From contig CAZIHL010000001.1 of the NCBI GenBank assembly GCA_964538815.1, positions 79,034-143,033 on the forward strand: a stretch of 64,000 nt of DNA, written 5' to 3'. The position numbers and the translations under genes are program-made. Positions 35,170 to 41,760 of the stretch are shown here, piece by piece; position 1 is the first letter of the stretch; the number at the start of each line of letters is the position of its first letter. This DNA is from an uncultured Candidatus Saccharibacteria bacterium. Its GTDB lineage: Bacteria; Patescibacteriota; Minisyncoccia; Phycocordibacterales; UBA5272. The notes under the pieces were generated by a model. It was not told the DNA's origin. It ran no database searches and was given only the letters and a program-made list of their open reading frames with translations.

Positions 35170-35242
35170 GCCAATATAGCTCAGTTGGTAGAGCACATCC
35201 ATGGTAAGGATGAGGTCATCAGTTCGATCCTGATTATTGGCT
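35170..35242 (+). tRNA. tRNA-Thr(GGU)
   Basis: Acceptor GCCAATA/TATTGGC, anticodon stem CATCC/GGATG with loop ATGGTAA, T-loop TTCGATC. Confidence 0.85.
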
Positions 35243-35375
35243 CCAGTTTTGTAGAAAAAGACACAGAAGACCCAAGAGAGTGGGACGCGCTCCGCTCGGC
35301 AACCCCGAAAGAAAAATGTCTCTTGCTTTTTTGATTTGCGCAGGTTTTCGCTTCGGGATTTTTCGGCGGCGGCTA
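35241..35375. repeat. left arm of a 135-bp terminal inverted repeat (IR-L)
   Basis: Reverse complement of 38331..38466 with only about 4 mismatches. Begins within the last nucleotides of the tRNA-Thr (ctccag). Confidence 0.85.
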
Positions 35376-35404
35376 TGGACAAAAACGACTAAAACTGCTA
35401 AAAT
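35376..35404 (+). promoter_or_regulatory. putative sigma70 promoter TGGACA-N17-TAAAAT giving a near-leaderless transcript
   Basis: Hexamers and spacing read directly from the sequence. The ATG at 35414 lies about 3-5 nt from the predicted TSS. Confidence 0.45.
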
Positions 35405-35413
35405 TCATTTCAT

Positions 35414-38323
35414 ATGGAGAAGCCACATTTTGAAGCACGATTTGGACAAACAAAGAAGACGCTTGAATCTTCGCGAGCGGAAATAAATGAGTTTTTGAAA
35501 CAAGAAACTCTCGACGAACGAGATAGAGTTCGCCTCACTCGTGTTTTGCAATTAGTAGAACGCTATCAACCGGAACGAGAAGTTGAAGAACCAAAAGTTA
35601 ATAAGTGGCGAAGCTATCTCGAAAGCGTGTATCGTTTTTTACCGAGTCGAAAAAAAACGCAAAAACCAATTGAAAATATTTCCGCTCGCTCATATCTACT
35701 TGCTGAAAAAACAATCGCTTCACTTCGGGAACTTCAACATGTAGATTTCCAACTTGAACAAGAAAGTGGATTTTCTGAAGAAGAAGTTTTAAATCAAGAA
35801 CGACCGAGTAAAGTTGAAAGAGAGGAAACATTAGACACTTCTCTTACACTTGAATACGAAAAGAAAAATTGGGGTGTAGAACGAGTTTGTCTTGATGGTG
35901 TGCAAAATCACTTGCCATCAGACTCAAAAGGTGAGCATGTTTGGGTAAGATGTTTAGTTGGTGGCAAGTGGGTTTCTTTGACAGAAGCAAAAGACAAAAA
36001 AGATCAAATAGAAGCGGTGAGATTTGCAGACGATGGCGTTGGTTTTGATGTAAAAAATCTAGTACTTTTATATTCCACAAAAGCGGAGGAAAAAGAATCT
36101 CGCGGACAATTTGGAGAAGGTATGAAAATGATGGCCGCCGCGGCTCTGCGGGAGGGCTTGGAGCCGGAAATGGAATCTCAAGACTGGCGCGCAAAGCCAA
36201 CACCAAAAGAAGTAGAGGTTTTTGATACACGACATCAAAAAGAACGAGTTATTCAACAACTCTCGTTTAAAGTTGACTATTTAGCTGGCGAGCCAATGAT
36301 TGGTTCTCGCACTACTTTTCATAAGCCAACCGAAGCGTTTGTTGACGAGTTAATGCAAATTGAAAAGAAAGTTTTGGCTTTGCGCGAAAATTATCGTCCC
36401 GTTTTTGTGGGAAGTACGGGCGAAATTGTAGATCGTGAATCAGGAAGTCTATTTGTAAAAGGAATTTATGTTAGAGGTAAGAAAACTTTGTTTTCTTACA
36501 ACTTTGAAGATGTTGAAACAAACCGAGATCGCAACAGAATTGTTTCAGAAGGTTTAGAAAGAAGAATTGCAAAAATAGTTCAAGAAATTTCCGATAAACG
36601 ATTGGTTAAAACAATGCTTCAAAAAAGTATTGTGGAACCGGACGCAGTTGAAAGTTCTTTTTATGATCTAAGAGCCGAACATCCAACAGTATGGATTGAG
36701 GGATTTTATGAAGCATTTGGAAAAGATGCAGTTCTGGATACAGGTTTCAAAATCCCCGATACTTTCAAAGATAAGCCGTTGAACAAAGTTAAAGTGCCGT
36801 CTGGCATGCAGAGTTTGCTTTTGCGAGCGGGAGTAAAGACCGACCAAGAGGTCACACCTGATTTTTGGGAGGAAACAATCCCGACTTCCTTAACTCTTGA
36901 ATACGGAAAAGATATTTGGAATGAGGAAAGAATTTTACTTGACGCGGTGCAAAATCATTTACCGCACGATTCCGGCGGTTTAAATATCGGTTTGCGTTTC
37001 AAAACTAAAGATGGCAAGTGGCACTCATTTAGAGATTTACCAGATATTAAAGACGAAGAGGTAGAGTCCGTAAAAATTTATGATGATGGACGCGGATATG
37101 ACTCTCGTTTGCTCGGTTTTTTCTACTCTACAAAAGGAGAGGGTGAAAGCACCGGAAAATTTGGCGAGGGTTTGAAAATGTTGTGCATAGCTTCACTACG
37201 CAAGGGTATTGATATGACTTTGCGTTCTCAAAATTGGTCATCGAAACCGAGAGCGTTACGACAAGAAGTTGATGGAAAGCAAATTGATCAGCTTGTTTTT
37301 GATGTAATTCACGCTGTTAAAAAACAAGAAATGGACGATGATGAGGGGCTTTATCAAAGCAGTTCAACTACATTTTCAAACCCGACGCCGGAATTATTGC
37401 AAGAATTTCGCCAAATTAACAAAAAAGTTCTCGCAATAGAAAGAGCAAAACCAGTAGAAAGAACTTCAAATGGAGATGTACTTTCGCTTGATGGAGGAAT
37501 GGTTTATGTGCGAGAACTTTTGATTCCAGGAGACCACAATTTGCTTTTCACTTATCATTTGCCGAGATTGGAAATTAAAAATCGAGACCGAAGTTTTGTT
37601 GACCAACAAGAACTTACTCCGGCTATCGCAGGGGTATGGTCGGAGACCGAAAATCCTGAAGTTATCAAAAGTTTTCTTTTCAAAGCAAATTTGGAAGCGC
37701 AAAAAGGTGGCGGAAAAGATAAGGTCGAATTTTCGATGGATTTTACCCCCAAAGATACTGAAAACTGGAAAAAGATTTTCGAGGAAGTTTTTGGAAAAGA
37801 TACCGCTATTCGCGATATGCGCTCGGAAGATTTTGACGCTATGCAACAAAATATGCATGTCGGTTTGGAACTTGTATCTTTTCCAAGCGCAACATATCAA
37901 GTTTTGAAAAGACTTGGATTGCCAACATATGAATCTCGTTTATCTGAAATGACCGATGTGGAGCATATTCCTAACGAAGAGCTAACAGCAGAAGAAAAAG
38001 CGTTATTGGAGGTTTTAACAGCGATTGATGAATATTTACCGAACAATAGGCCGTCTGAGATTAAAGTCTATAAGCGCAAAACAGATGGTCAAAAAGTTGC
38101 AGCTGGTTTTGCTGATGGTGTAAATATTCATCTTTTGCGCGAAATTCTATCTGATTTTACTCACGCGGCAGATGTGTATGTTCACGAGAAAACGCATCAT
38201 AATACCGGTGGCGCACAAGACGCAAGTTCAGATTTCAGAAATTACCTAAGTTTTGCGCTGGGCAAGATGGCGTTAGATCAATTGAAAAAAGTTCGACCAG
38301 ATTTAGTAAAGACAGAGAGTTAA
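35414..38323 (+). CDS. 969-aa protein with two tandem GHKL (Bergerat-fold) ATPase modules and a C-terminal HExxH motif
   Basis: A duplicated module of about 350 aa. Each copy has an N-box-like LD[GA]VQNHLP.D, a G1 box DDG[VR]G[FY]D and a G2 box G[QK]FGEG[ML]K (Hsp90/MORC-like). C-terminal VYVHEKTHH. Foreign codon usage (CGN arginine, higher GC). Confidence 0.7.
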   Translation: MEKPHFEARFGQTKKTLESSRAEINEFLKQETLDERDRVRLTRVLQLVERYQPEREVEEPKVNKWRSYLESVYRFLPSRKKTQKPIENISARSYLLAEKTIASLRELQHVDFQLEQESGFSEEEVLNQERPSKVEREETLDTSLTLEYEKKNWGVERVCLDGVQNHLPSDSKGEHVWVRCLVGGKWVSLTEAKDKKDQIEAVRFADDGVGFDVKNLVLLYSTKAEEKESRGQFGEGMKMMAAAALREGLEPEMESQDWRAKPTPKEVEVFDTRHQKERVIQQLSFKVDYLAGEPMIGSRTTFHKPTEAFVDELMQIEKKVLALRENYRPVFVGSTGEIVDRESGSLFVKGIYVRGKKTLFSYNFEDVETNRDRNRIVSEGLERRIAKIVQEISDKRLVKTMLQKSIVEPDAVESSFYDLRAEHPTVWIEGFYEAFGKDAVLDTGFKIPDTFKDKPLNKVKVPSGMQSLLLRAGVKTDQEVTPDFWEETIPTSLTLEYGKDIWNEERILLDAVQNHLPHDSGGLNIGLRFKTKDGKWHSFRDLPDIKDEEVESVKIYDDGRGYDSRLLGFFYSTKGEGESTGKFGEGLKMLCIASLRKGIDMTLRSQNWSSKPRALRQEVDGKQIDQLVFDVIHAVKKQEMDDDEGLYQSSSTTFSNPTPELLQEFRQINKKVLAIERAKPVERTSNGDVLSLDGGMVYVRELLIPGDHNLLFTYHLPRLEIKNRDRSFVDQQELTPAIAGVWSETENPEVIKSFLFKANLEAQKGGGKDKVEFSMDFTPKDTENWKKIFEEVFGKDTAIRDMRSEDFDAMQQNMHVGLELVSFPSATYQVLKRLGLPTYESRLSEMTDVEHIPNEELTAEEKALLEVLTAIDEYLPNNRPSEIKVYKRKTDGQKVAAGFADGVNIHLLREILSDFTHAADVYVHEKTHHNTGGAQDASSDFRNYLSFALGKMALDQLKKVRPDLVKTES

Positions 38324-38330
38324 TTTCTTG

Positions 38331-38466
38331 ATAGCCGTCGCCGAAAAATCCCGAAGCGAAAGCCCGCGTAAATCAAAAAAGCAAGAGACATTTTTCTTTC
38401 GGGGTTGCCGAGCGGAGCGCGTCCCACTCTCTTGGGTCTTCTGTGTCTTTTTCTACAAAACTGGAG
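38331..38466. repeat. right arm of the 135-bp terminal inverted repeat (IR-R)
   Basis: Reverse complement of IR-L. Ends with ctggag (revcomp ctccag). Confidence 0.85.
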
Positions 38467-38530
38467 TGTCTTTATGACTTCGCTCGAACTTACTTTATCA
38501 AAAATTCCTAATGAATCCAAATGCGGACTC

Positions 38531-38574
38531 GGTTTTGCCAAACTATTTTTCTGGGGAAAAGGATTGGCAAAACC
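38531..38574 (+). other. stable hairpin (11-bp stem ggttttgccaa/ttggcaaaacc, 22-nt loop)
   Basis: Perfect complementarity seen directly. Followed by a GC-rich segment and a T8 run at 38636..38643, possibly a terminator for read-through from the 969-aa gene. Confidence 0.4.
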
Positions 38575-38705
38575 TCGGCTGTTTTCCCGCCCGCAGGAGG
38601 GGTCTGGGGAGGAATCCGCATGGGCTGGGCTTCCGTTTTTTTTGTGGCTAAAATGGCTTAAAAACAAAGGTTTTTTAGAGTTAAACTAGGTTATAGCGAT
38701 TTGGC

Positions 38706-38734
38706 TTGACAAAATAGACTAGATATGCTATACT
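38706..38734 (+). promoter_or_regulatory. consensus sigma70 promoter TTGACA-N17-TATACT
   Basis: Perfect -35 hexamer, 17-nt spacer, near-consensus -10. Predicted TSS about 38741. Confidence 0.6.
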
Positions 38735-38954
38735 TAACGCATAATTTGAGGCGGTAAAAATACTCCTTAAATTATGTAAATTGTTCTTTGATAAGCGAGA
38801 TTAGTGAAAATTTCTTTTGCTCTACTACTTCGTGAGTAGCATAGTATGTATCTCAATTTGAGGTATCTAGTGTGCTACTCATGTTGAGGAGCCCTTGATG
38901 CGAGGAACGTATCATTAAAAAAAAATTTTTGATATGATATTATGGTCTAACGAG

Positions 38955-39698
38955 ATGGGCGAGAGGGGGCGAGGAGCCTGGCTGTTATTTATAAAGGATG
39001 ACGAAGTCATCGTCTTCCGCGGCCAGAACATCCCCGGTGTGGTCGTCGTGCGCGGCACGGACTACACCAAGAACGGGAAGTGGTCTCACACCACCTACCG
39101 CCTCCAGCTTGTCCCTGGAGTTCGCCAGATAGCCGGATACTCCGGCTGGGAAACCGGTCGGTTCGTCGAAGGCCTCGGCTCCGCCGTTGGCTGCGCAACG
39201 CCCGACACGTGGGCGGACACGGCCAAGGCTCTTGGGGTTTCGGTCCCGAGCGTGATGGAGTTCCTGCGGAGCTGGCGTCCGAAAGCCGCGGCGAAGCTGG
39301 ACGAAGTCGAGCAGGCGTTGGCCGATCTCGAGGAAGCCTCCTCTCAACAGGAGACCGACTCGGTGATCGTTACCGTCTCCTTCGGTTCGCCGACCAACCG
39401 CGCCATCAGCGATGGCTACTGGGTGGCGCCGAAGGCGATCCCGGGCTACAATGCGGAGATCCACCTGAAGGATCGCTCGCAGGGCTGGAACGAGGGGAAC
39501 ATCGAGGTTGTCGGAATCTCCGGCACCATCCTCTCGGTCAAGCACTCGGCCGGAATGCACGGCGGTTACTACGCCGTGTCGGTCGCGGTGATACCCGGAA
39601 CGGAGACCGAGATCCCGCCCTTCGAGACCAGCAAGCCTTGTAACGGTGGTAACACCGTGTTGGGCGATGCCCTCCGTAAGGCAGGGCTCCGCAGCTAG
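38955..39698 (+). CDS. hypothetical protein encoded by a very high-GC, GC3-rich foreign CDS
   Basis: A 744-bp frame with GC3 almost entirely G/C and balanced amino-acid composition. The alternative frames are Arg/Gly-rich junk. The ATG at 38955 marks the switch from AT-rich to GC-rich sequence. The in-frame upstream ATG at 38934 is an alternative start. Confidence 0.6.
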   Translation: MGERGRGAWLLFIKDDEVIVFRGQNIPGVVVVRGTDYTKNGKWSHTTYRLQLVPGVRQIAGYSGWETGRFVEGLGSAVGCATPDTWADTAKALGVSVPSVMEFLRSWRPKAAAKLDEVEQALADLEEASSQQETDSVIVTVSFGSPTNRAISDGYWVAPKAIPGYNAEIHLKDRSQGWNEGNIEVVGISGTILSVKHSAGMHGGYYAVSVAVIPGTETEIPPFETSKPCNGGNTVLGDALRKAGLRS

Positions 39699-39747
39699 TC
39701 TCGTATCGTATTTCCAGTTTGAGAGGACTGGGTTAACAAAACCTCTC

Positions 39748-39799
39748 TCTGTCGATAAGTGTGTTACTTATCCTGATGAGTCCGAAAGGACGAAACAGA
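39748..39799 (+). ncRNA. hammerhead ribozyme, type III topology (open stem III)
   Basis: tctGUC cleavage site, then stem I GATAAG-tgtgtta-CTTATC, then CUGAUGA, then stem II GTCC-GAAA-GGAC, then GAA, then ACAGA pairing with UCUGU. Every conserved core position is present. Confidence 0.8.
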
Positions 39800-39931
39800 T
39801 TGTACCTTGAGAAAATTTAGTTCTCTCGTGAGTAGCGCAATGGATGTCTTAAAAAGATTTCTAGTGCTGTCGGATACTTCGGACCAATTACGAGAGGGGA
39901 AATAAAATAAAAATAAATTTATTGTATAGAA

Positions 39932-39968
39932 TAACTCCATAGCTGTCAGTCGGGAGTTATTTTTTATT
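39932..39968 (+). terminator. intrinsic terminator
   Basis: taactcc-(14-nt loop)-ggagtta followed by ttttttattt. Confidence 0.6.
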
Positions 39969-39999
39969 TCTCACAATTTTGTTAAAATGTGCTTTAAGG

Positions 40000-40073
40000 C
40001 CATCTTAGCTTAGTTGGTAGAGCACTTCACTCGTAACGAAGAGGTCTCGAGTTCGATCCTCGGAGATGGCTCA
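40000..40073 (+). tRNA. tRNA-Thr(CGU)
   Basis: Acceptor GCCATCT/AGATGGC, anticodon loop CTCGTAA, T-arm TCGAG-TTCGATC-CTCGG. One A:C mismatch at the base of the anticodon stem. Confidence 0.8.
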
Positions 40074-40096
40074 AAATTTTGTTATTATTTATATAA

Positions 40097-40990
40097 ATGC
40101 GAGATAAAGAAGAAGTAAAAAAAGAATTAATAGCATTAGAAGCTCATTTGTATGAGAATGATTTTTGGACAGATAAAAGCCATGCTAACGAAGTTCTACA
40201 AAAAATAAAAGAATTGAAAATGGAGCTGGAAGGTGGAAGTATTCTTGATGCTGGAAGCGCTACGATGAATATTTTAGCAGGAGCGGGAGGCGACGATAGT
40301 GAAGACTTTGCTCGAATGCTGGTAAACATGTATTTAAAATATTTTGAAAGAAATGGATGGGAAGTATTTAATCTTCACTCAAATAGTAATGACCATGGAG
40401 GCTACAGAAATATCTCTATAGAAATAATAGGTAAAAATGTTTATGGAAAATTAAAAAATGAATCAGGAGTCCATCGTCTTGTGCGTATTTCTCCGTTCAA
40501 TAGCAACGCAAAGAGACATACGAGCTTTGCAATGGTTGAAATATTACCAGTACTACCAAAATTAGAATTTGAGAAATTTAAATCAAATCTAAATTCTGAC
40601 GATATAGAAGTAGAAACTTCAAAATCATCTGGACCAGGTGGTCAAAATGTAAATAAAAGAGAGACAGCAGTGCGAGTAGTACACAAACCTACAAATATTG
40701 CCGTGTCAGTATCAACCGAAAGAAGTCAAGAACAAAATAAAGAAAAAGCTTTTAATATGCTCTATGCGAAGCTTTTTAAATTAGAAGAAAGAAGACAAAA
40801 AGCTGAAAAAGAAGGATTACAAATTTCTAAAACGGTAGAAATAGAGTGGGGAAATCAGATCAGAAATTATGTTCTACATCCGTATAAATTAGTAAAAGAT
40901 TTGAGGACTAATATAGAAACAAGCGATGTAGATAAAGTTTTAGAAAAAGGTGAAATCGAAGAATTTATAGAAGCGGAAAAAAGTATTTAA
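40097..40990 (+). CDS. prfB: peptide chain release factor 2 (N-terminally short)
   Basis: SPF tripeptide (RISPFNS) and GGQ motif (SGPGGQNVNK), 297 aa. Confidence 0.85.
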   Translation: MRDKEEVKKELIALEAHLYENDFWTDKSHANEVLQKIKELKMELEGGSILDAGSATMNILAGAGGDDSEDFARMLVNMYLKYFERNGWEVFNLHSNSNDHGGYRNISIEIIGKNVYGKLKNESGVHRLVRISPFNSNAKRHTSFAMVEILPVLPKLEFEKFKSNLNSDDIEVETSKSSGPGGQNVNKRETAVRVVHKPTNIAVSVSTERSQEQNKEKAFNMLYAKLFKLEERRQKAEKEGLQISKTVEIEWGNQIRNYVLHPYKLVKDLRTNIETSDVDKVLEKGEIEEFIEAEKSI

Positions 40991-41079
40991 AATATAAGTT
41001 ATTTTTAAATGTTAATAACTATTTTTAGTAAAATATAATTTTATGTTAAACTAAAAAACATAGACTTAGGTTATTTTTT

Positions 41080-41760
41080 ATGCTTTATTTTGAAAATGTA
41101 AAAAAAGAGTATCCCGGTGGATTTGTTGTTCTAGACGAAGTAAATCTGACAATTGATAAAGGGGAACTAGTTTCAATTGTAGGACACTCTGGAGCAGGCA
41201 AGACCACACTTATAAAAATGATTTTGGCTGAAGAAAAGCCAAGCCGTGGAAAAATATCATTTCACTCAAATCAAATACATAAATTAAGAGGGAAAGAATT
41301 GACTAACTTTAGAAGAAAGGTTGGGGTTGTTTTTCAAGATTACAGATTACTTTCAAATAGAACAGTATTTGAAAATATTGCTTTTGCTATGGAAGCTGCA
41401 GGAAAGACTGATGAAGACATAATAAAAGACGTGCCTCATGTTTTAGATCTTGTAGACCTTCGAAATAAAATCTATCATTTTCCAGATCAGCTTTCTGGTG
41501 GAGAAAAACAACGTGTCGCAATTGCTCGTGCACTTGTAAATAGGCCAGATATTATCATTGCTGATGAGCCAACTGGAAATCTTGATCCGGTAAATACTTA
41601 TGATATTATCCAGATTCTTAAAAAAATAAATGATCTCGGCACAACTATCATTCTCACAACTCATAATAAAGGTATTATTGATCACTTAAAAAAGAGAGTT
41701 ATAACAATGGAAGATGGTAGAATTATAAAAGATGAAAAGATTGGAAAATATTCAATTTAA
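41080..41760 (+). CDS. ftsE: cell division ATP-binding protein FtsE
   Basis: Walker [13 protein letters not shown] signature [15 protein letters not shown], Walker [12 protein letters not shown]. Confidence 0.9.

Follow-up and report, generated by a model that had tools for sequence, protein, structure and literature searches.

What are the two hairpin-forming repeats that lie on either side of a single GC-rich gene in the AT-rich genome of an uncultured Candidatus Saccharibacteria bacterium? The 64,000-nucleotide (nt) stretch analysed here, which we call the window, has about 28% GC overall and carries between 35250 and 40000 an island of foreign composition, flanked by the genes for tRNA-Thr(ggt) (35170-35245) and tRNA-Thr(cgt) (39999-40072). 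In this island the repeats bracket a coding sequence (CDS, 38934-39698, named gene A) and a hammerhead ribozyme (39746-39801), as the original prediction had noticed. It read them either as remnant att or other recombination sites of a gene-cassette insertion, or as paired RNA modules in the 5' and 3' untranslated regions (UTRs). We consider it probable that both repeats belong to leaders of consecutive cistrons in a mobile, GC-rich cassette of Patescibacteria, that these leaders, each built around a hairpin named P2, are ancient paralogues, and that of the second only a relic is left. This is supported directly by the homology of both copies to leaders elsewhere, the strand-specific covarying hairpin, the hammerhead between cistrons, and the loss of the 3' arm together with the following gene (gene B). 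All cassette features are on the forward strand, and coordinates are window positions.

The sequence match between the repeats is short. The strings CGTGAGTAGC (38831-38840 and 39827-39836) and CTAGTG (38867 and 39861) lie where they had been reported, and each identical stretch extends a little further: TCGTGAGTAGC (11 nt) begins at 38830 and again at 39826, TCTAGTG (7 nt) at 38866 and 39860. Allowing one mismatch at most, the 10-mer matches the window at five places against 0.54 expected, one of them being the complementary arm of the upstream hairpin (38874-38883). Alignment of 38800-38900 against 39800-39900 recovers the 11-mer, but the local score is 22 and comes from the 11-mer alone. 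This score is equalled in 25 of 2000 dinucleotide shuffles (1.25%) and in 15% of window segment pairs 1 kilobase (kb) apart, figures that would fit a chance match between two AT-rich intergenic stretches. On within-window statistics alone the repeat pair is weakly significant and not compelling. It is nevertheless real, because the same arrangement recurs around homologous genes in other genomes, and the arrangement is genuine rather than an assembly artefact, since an independent Logan contig is 100% identical over 38586-41100.

We compared the window with at least 11 genome and at least 14 metagenome loci (designated by L numbers), which are a sample and not a census. Homologues of gene A lie between two leader copies in L003 (Moraniibacteriota), L018, L020, L033-L035 and L002. 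With P1 to P4 denoting the successive structured elements of the leader, the order in L003, L018, L020 and L033-L035 is near-consensus promoter, P1, P2, P3, P4, Shine-Dalgarno sequence and gene A, followed by a small hairpin, the hammerhead, a short linker, and again P2, P3, P4 and a Shine-Dalgarno sequence ahead of a variable second gene. P2 in these relatives reads CGUGAGUAGC-loop-GCUACUCAUG. The two leader copies of L002 are accompanied by a degenerate ribozyme core, and L024 carries four leader copies in an array of four genes.

An alignment of 16 distinct P2 copies from related Patescibacteria loci shows that the hairpin is conserved as a structure. Its main helix of 19 pairs is 95.6% paired over the 16 copies, and 13 of the 19 pairs have changes on both sides, while the four central pairs (UAGC/GCUA) are nearly invariant. 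When the 3' partners are shifted by one to three columns as a control, pairing drops to 35-49%. Many of the pairs are G-U, and each of the 16 copies folds more stably as sense than as antisense strand (mean difference 11.8 kcal/mol, p = 3e-5). In every case P2 is found downstream of a promoter or a hammerhead and upstream of a start codon. This strand asymmetry and this placement speak for an element of the transcript, acting as RNA, and against a symmetric DNA site.

A covariance model of P2 (R1, 76 positions) finds in the 64-kb window one full copy, one partial copy and no others. The full copy is the upstream repeat (38818-38896, 67.7 bits, E = 8e-17), a complete leader hairpin with a near-perfect duplex of about 25 base pairs (bp), placed between promoter and start codon. 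Its main helix (38831-38883) includes the invariant UAGC/GCUA pairs, and an outer stem partly pairs 38826-38832 with the GAGGAG region. With its inner stem GUAUCU.../...AGGUAUC it is similar to the leaders of gene-A type in L018 and L020, and it folds as had been proposed (-31 kcal/mol, z = -7.1). Rfam 15 scans that covered the region, the window as a whole and 25 related loci gave no match to the leader; they returned tRNAs, one transfer-messenger RNA and hammerheads, and nothing further. Exact matches to P2 arms in viral contigs (n = 26) all score at most 26 bits with R1, against 47-84 for real copies, and are generic hairpins; the P2 hairpin was thus not found in viral contigs by exact-arm scan and R1 rescoring.

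The downstream repeat is only the first part of such a leader. Between 39800 and 39866 it consists of the linker, the 5' arm and the apical hairpin of a gene-B-type P2, and from the hammerhead through these elements the window follows leader B of L020 almost base for base, with two mismatches in 42 nt (about 95% identity over CTCGTGAGTAGC...TCTAGTG). The homology stops at about 39866, and R1 matches only 39837-39867 (21.6 bits, model positions 24-53 of 76). Where relatives continue with UGCUACUCAU-CGAGGAG, P3, P4, a Shine-Dalgarno sequence and gene B, the window has CTGTCGGATACTTCGGACCAATTACGAGAGG. The sequence that stands in place of the lost 3' arm (39867-39898) has no homologue in any fetched locus, BLAST giving spurious matches of 13-21 nt only. 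It forms a small hairpin, ACGAGAGG closes a local stem with UCUCUCGU, and the module as a whole folds as had been foreseen (-27.9 kcal/mol, z = -3.3), with a closing stem of 11 bp formed by UUCUCUCGUGA and UUACGAGAGGG. Since its 3' arm is lost, this copy cannot form the conserved hairpin, and since it matches R1 only in part and is followed by neither a start codon nor a gene, we take it to be a relic and not a member of the P2 family. After it come a terminator-like hairpin and the tRNA-Thr gene; gene B is gone. The upstream copy being of gene-A type and the downstream copy of gene-B type, the two are old paralogues and not the product of a recent duplication. As each copy has homologues among the leaders that occupy the same positions in other genomes, shown for the upstream one by its R1 score and for the downstream one by its near identity to leader B of L020, the cross-genome comparison already refutes a chance match, whose probability we put at next to nothing.

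These results divide the proposal of paired RNA modules. Its first part stands, as the upstream copy is a 5' UTR hairpin supported by covariation. The pairing of the two UTRs fails: the copies are same-sense paralogues, the downstream one being the leftover 5' half of the next cistron's leader. When the full predicted transcript is folded, P1, P2 and the downstream module all stay local, with no pairing between the 5' and 3' modules. Comparable deletions are seen in relatives, a truncated gene A being joined to P3 of the next leader in L032 and gene B being cut after 11 codons in L034. The window cassette is reduced in other respects too, with a short form of gene A and a leader that has neither P4 nor a Shine-Dalgarno sequence.

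Could the downstream module instead be functional in itself, as a released RNA of about 214 nt with a 5'-OH end (39754-39967) or as a 3' stability element? Its stable fold with the 11-bp closing stem would suit such a role, and its position between ribozyme and terminator means that it would accumulate as a discrete RNA. The orphan arm CGUGAGUAGCGCA could moreover form 13 bp with the P2 3' arm (38871-38884), as can be read in the sequence. This complementarity, however, is automatic, the orphan arm being half of the same hairpin, and the full-transcript fold keeps both modules local. The 3' half of the module is also absent from all other fetched loci, and several relatives (L016) end in hammerhead and terminator with no such module. 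We therefore find a function of its own unlikely, and prefer to see in the downstream copy the stump of a leader.

Between the two repeats, and not within either of them, lies the only hammerhead of the whole window, a type III ribozyme (39746-39801; Rfam RF00008, 44.2 bits, E = 2e-7). Its catalytic core is complete, with CUGAUGA at 39773-39779, GAAA at 39792-39795 and GUC at 39751-39753, and cleavage is predicted after C39753. The core is identical in eight of nine aligned homologues. Over nine homologous loci, changes on both sides are found in 6/6 pairs of stem I, 2/4 of stem II and 2/5 of stem III, and 92% of the cells in the stems are paired against 36-52% in slid controls, in agreement with a three-helix fold in which stem III is open. 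The ribozyme lies 45-60 nt past the gene A stop codon in the window and in L003, L018, L020, L021, L033, L016, L005 and L007, and L016 has hammerheads on both sides of gene A. In L003, L018, L020, L033, L007 and L016 it lies between co-oriented genes of one transcription unit, of which the window has lost the downstream one.

A 3' UTR element (39714-39747) directly precedes the hammerhead. Its CCAG/CUGG hairpin (39714-39731) is found at the same place in L003, L018, L020, L033, L016 and L021 and covaries to ACAG/CUGU. In the window, pairing is possible between the hairpin loop, GAGAGG (39721-39726), and the CCUCUC (39742-39747) that immediately precedes the ribozyme. The consensus of this loop pairing, upstream of stem III, is GAGRGN/NCYCUC, and it is mostly invariant, so that covariation supports it weakly.

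Repeats about 1 kb apart around a hammerhead recall retrozymes and viroid-like elements, in which ribozyme repeats release an RNA, here of about 1 kb, for circularisation. The many homologous contigs of just 1.1-1.3 kb and the hammerheads on both sides of gene A in L016 would agree with such an element. But there is just one hammerhead in the window and none inside the repeats, and the cassette is chromosomal DNA with its own promoter and terminator. We also considered whether the short contigs were circles and rejected this, because assemblies break at the repeated leaders and the contigs end in or next to a leader or an upstream module. Clustered bacterial hammerheads, furthermore, gave no circular or spliced products in the study of Perreault et al. 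(PMC3088659), and a retrozyme is accordingly very improbable here.

Those clustered hammerheads are a close known parallel to the leaders and ribozymes described here. Hammerheads flank single genes in operons of prophages or mobile elements, an example being the triple hammerhead around ardA in Agrobacterium tumefaciens (Perreault et al. 2011, PMC3088659); when native polycistronic constructs about 2 kb long are transcribed in vitro, they cleave the transcripts, and for one cloned arrangement self-cleavage was also seen in vivo (PMC3088659). What links hammerheads to particular genes in bacteria is considered an open question (PMC6765202). The Patescibacteria cassettes share with them a type III hammerhead between the cistrons of a foreign, mobile-looking operon in which the following genes vary, ribozymes that flank one gene (L016), and, in relatives, neighbours with a counter-defence look (B116/DUF1874-like in L014 and L007, Csx3-like in L017). 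They differ in that the ribozyme is followed by a repeated leader of P2, P3 and P4 and preceded by a conserved 3' hairpin, in that the hosts are Patescibacteria, and in that the cassette is far richer in GC than these hosts. In the literature we found no paper linking hammerheads to Patescibacteria and no description of repeated multi-hairpin leaders after ribozymes. Hammerheads that separate genes of mobile operons are already known, then, and the repeated leader appears to be previously undescribed.

The cassette has the setting of a mobile element, with its GC contrast, the two flanking tRNA-Thr genes, its occurrence in several lineages of Patescibacteria, and a gene A homologue in a viral contig of 67% GC. 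This returns us to the proposal that the repeats are DNA sites, att-like or akin to integron attC, with a recombinase that would cut and join the hairpins once single-stranded DNA had folded into them. Several observations agree with it: imperfect palindromes bracket a gene of foreign composition, different loci have different genes after the leader, the ends of deletions fall in or close to leaders, a serine recombinase lies a few kb upstream of the L016 cassette, and the island sits between two tRNA-Thr genes. Imperfect inverted repeats that recur between variable genes of foreign composition are also a trait of attC cassettes. However, attC sites act as folded single-stranded DNA, lie 3' of promoterless open reading frames (ORFs) and depend on the integrase IntI, while P2 is predicted to be transcribed, depends on G-U pairs, lies 5' of its ORF in a leader with a ribosome-binding region, and in the window is downstream of a promoter with 11/12 matches. 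The pairing of P2 is strongly strand-asymmetric, the leader is always downstream of a promoter or ribozyme, and the repeated unit runs through P3, P4 and the Shine-Dalgarno sequence to the start codon, as a translation-initiation leader would. Both elements lie inside the predicted transcript, and the second, having no 3' arm, is not a hairpin-forming site like the first. Neither IntI nor attI adjoins the cassette and no recombinase is found among the flanking ORFs, to which the screen was confined; they encode the 969-amino-acid (aa) GHKL-ATPase-like protein described below, a release factor, FtsE and FtsX. For any DNA-level boundaries of the island, two 143-nt inverted repeats (35241-35383 and 38324-38466) are better candidates. 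A role of the hairpins as recombination sites is thus improbable, and we return to leaders of successive cistrons.

How might such leaders work? In intact relatives one transcript would carry leader, gene A, 3' hairpin, hammerhead, leader and gene B, sometimes with further units. Self-cleavage of the hammerhead would then convert it into single-gene messenger RNAs (mRNAs). The upstream product would end in a structured 3' tail, formed by the CCAG/CUGG hairpin and the loop pairing before the ribozyme, and the downstream product would begin with the ribozyme and a structured leader. In the window the unit past the hammerhead has been deleted; the second P2 is broken between its loop and its 3' arm, and the remaining TCGTGAGTAGC...TCTAGTG is joined to unrelated sequence, the terminator and the host tRNA-Thr gene.

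For P2 itself we favour a role in mRNA processing or stability, which we infer because its near-perfect duplex would suit RNase III (substrates of at least about 20 bp) or another factor that binds double-stranded RNA. Alternatively, P2 might act as a barrier to decay that depends on the 5' end, and together with P3 and P4 it possibly contributes to translation control. Two known types of hairpin are instructive. In phage T7, the early genes are separated by the RNase III processing hairpins R0.3 to R1.3, and these resemble P2 as repeated, similar hairpins of about 50-60 nt between cistrons, forming long, near-perfect duplexes with small internal mismatches. Unlike in T7, a ribozyme would already cut between the cistrons here, and the invariant UAGC/GCUA pairs of P2 point to sequence-specific recognition. 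The stabiliser hairpins at the 5' end of bacterial mRNAs, such as that of the ompA 5' UTR, are likewise stable stem-loops at or near the mRNA 5' end and before the ribosome-binding site. P2, in contrast, stands behind P1 or a hammerhead, is much longer, and is more conserved in sequence than a generic stabiliser requires.

Some points weigh against this account of paralogous leaders. The promoter, the transcript ends and the ribozyme cleavage are predictions. The hammerhead lies under the RF00008 gathering score (44.2 against 48.5 bits), as do its homologues at 40-48 bits, a shortfall due to the long stem I loop and the short stem II loop and not to the core. The truncated copy still folds stably, with its 11-bp closing stem (z = -3.3), and a remodelled functional element is conceivable. 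The gene A leader of the window has no P4 and no Shine-Dalgarno sequence; the cassette may be decaying, and P2 is perhaps no longer important here. Finally, RNase III site, stabiliser and operator are all candidate assignments for the molecular role of P2.

For the window the outcome is a clarification, in that an apparent pair of boundary sites would be one working RNA leader and a stump that marks the loss of a gene. More generally, a unit that recurs in Patescibacteria and is apparently undescribed emerges, made of a covarying leader, a hammerhead with its 3' hairpin, and a confidently modelled protein with no fold in the Protein Data Bank (PDB). The island that carries it is rich in GC and moves between genomes rich in AT. 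A family in which each ribozyme comes with the same structured leader offers a system for testing whether cleavage yields mRNAs that are individually stabilised or translated. A bolder and rather doubtful idea is that the P2-P3-P4 leader, the hammerhead and the 3' hairpin form a portable RNA "expression module" on mobile-element genes of Patescibacteria, these genes possibly serving counter-defence, with a dedicated factor that would read the UAGC/GCUA pairs of P2 and the AC/AC loop of P4. As part of the same idea, the orphan half-hairpin of about 214 nt released by the ribozyme might act in trans on the P2 of gene A.

The ORF at 38934-39698 is, judged by its sequence, a real gene. It encodes 254 aa, has 63% GC (0.80 at third codon positions), and is a short form of a conserved family with 224 homologues at 55-86% identity, all unannotated and mostly from Patescibacteria. 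In their alignment the core and the C-terminal tail are conserved; an insert of about 90 aa is optional and is absent in the window. Differences are concentrated at third codon positions (27, 25 and 70 at positions 1, 2 and 3 in the comparison with L033). The AlphaFold model of the protein is confident (predicted local distance difference test score 90.7), and neither model nor sequence has a significant fold or sequence relative in the PDB. The Patescibacteria lineages that carry gene A have a GC content of their own from 28% to 55%. In the viral contig L036 (67% GC), the gene A homologue has 53% identity, and its neighbours are uninformative except for a sigma factor.

Sequence searches of gene A and the gene B types in Pfam, PHROGs, PADLOC, NCBIfam and the PDB yielded nothing but one weak, B116-like hit, obtained with the second gene of L014. 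What the two gene B types have in common is limited to a C-terminal GWGG..TIGG motif. An impression by eye that gene B encodes DHH-type phosphoesterases was dropped, as no profile matched. Next to the cassette, B116/DUF1874-like genes occur in L014 and L007, with weak scores (Pfam E = 4e-4; AFV3-109 E = 0.07), and a Csx3-domain protein in L017 (PMC7371418). Viral members of B116/DUF1874 are reported to be ring-nuclease anti-CRISPRs (bioRxiv 10.1101/778746). The sequences of these neighbours hint that the cassette sits on a counter-defence island, a lead only.

The ends of the predicted gene A transcript can be placed as follows. A putative sigma-70-type promoter at 38706-38734 has TTGACA, a 17-nt spacer and TATACT, with TG before the -10 element, and the same promoter stands ahead of the leader in L003, L032-L035, L018 and L014. 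The predicted 5' end of the transcript folds into P1 (38739-38777, -16.8 kcal/mol, z = -6.9), which has a homologue in L003 and L032; in internal leader copies the hammerhead takes the position of P1. At the other end, the terminator-like hairpin followed by a U run (39924-39967, -13.2 kcal/mol, z = -3.0), which also appears in the inverted-repeat listing, ends the cassette 30 nt ahead of the tRNA-Thr(cgt) gene. A consensus terminator scan missed it because its loop has 14 nt.

After P2 the window has P3 (38897-38913), a short GAUGCG/CGUAUC hairpin read from the sequences. Its variants in relatives include AUGCG/CGCAU, GUGCG/CGCAC and GCCGCA/UGCGGC (by reading, with no formal count). At 38895-38917 and in the P3 of several relatives, GAGGAG is followed 6 nt later by AUG or GUG on the 5' arm of P3, which would allow a short upstream ORF (uORF), MRGTYH and a stop codon in the window and MRGTHYFT... 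in relatives; in L032 and L033b it ends at an AUGA that overlaps the main start. This uORF was rejected as the primary signal, since a start codon is missing at that place in L018a and L020a and the first position changes together with the base it pairs with (AUGCG/CGCAU against GUGCG/CGCAC).

Relatives continue after P3 with the P4 motif, UUCAC-[GYYC-AC-GGnn...nnCC-AC-GRRC]-ACGAA, directly ahead of the Shine-Dalgarno sequence; the window has neither. Examples are L003 4935-4990, L033 345-400, L012 3940-3995 and L020 110-178, among others. By eye the helices of P4 covary (GCCC/GGGC, GCUC/GAGC and GGCC/GGCC in one; GGGA/UCCC, GAGAU/AUCUC and GGAC/GUCC in the other) around a symmetric AC/AC internal loop. 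P4 has no match in Rfam, and such a motif may be a protein-binding translational operator.

In L024 (1200-4840), the four-gene array shows intergenic modules of about 400 nt, consisting of a 3' UTR and a P2 leader, repeated after each gene. The array contains no recognisable hammerhead, and its conserved CUGAAG...AAAAAC segment might be a different processing element.

Upstream of the cassette, the 969-aa ORF (35414-38323) encodes an internally duplicated GHKL-ATPase-like protein that matches phrog_6077. The 143-nt inverted repeats, 95% complementary, bracket exactly this ORF, and the left arm overlaps the last 5 nt of the tRNA-Thr(ggt) gene. In L033-L035 the motif at their inner ends, GGATTTTTCGGCGGCGGCTA, is found again ahead of the gene A promoter, and contig L032 begins and ends with a close variant of the same upstream module, GGATTTTTGGCGAGGGCGGC, in inverted orientation. 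The 143-nt repeats could be transposon-like ends or true DNA module boundaries. Between them and the cassette promoter, the non-coding stretch 38467-38700 has 77% identity to L033 1-185 and contains an 11-bp hairpin, GGUUUUGCCAA/UUGGCAAAACC (38531-38574), and a GC-rich terminator-like segment. On the right, a 15-nt direct repeat (CTCACAATTTTGTTA at 39970-39984 and CTCAAAATTTTGTTA at 40070-40084) brackets the tRNA-Thr(cgt) gene, its second copy overlapping the tRNA 3' end. This pair resembles an att-type duplication left by integration into a tRNA gene, and the island may have its right edge here.

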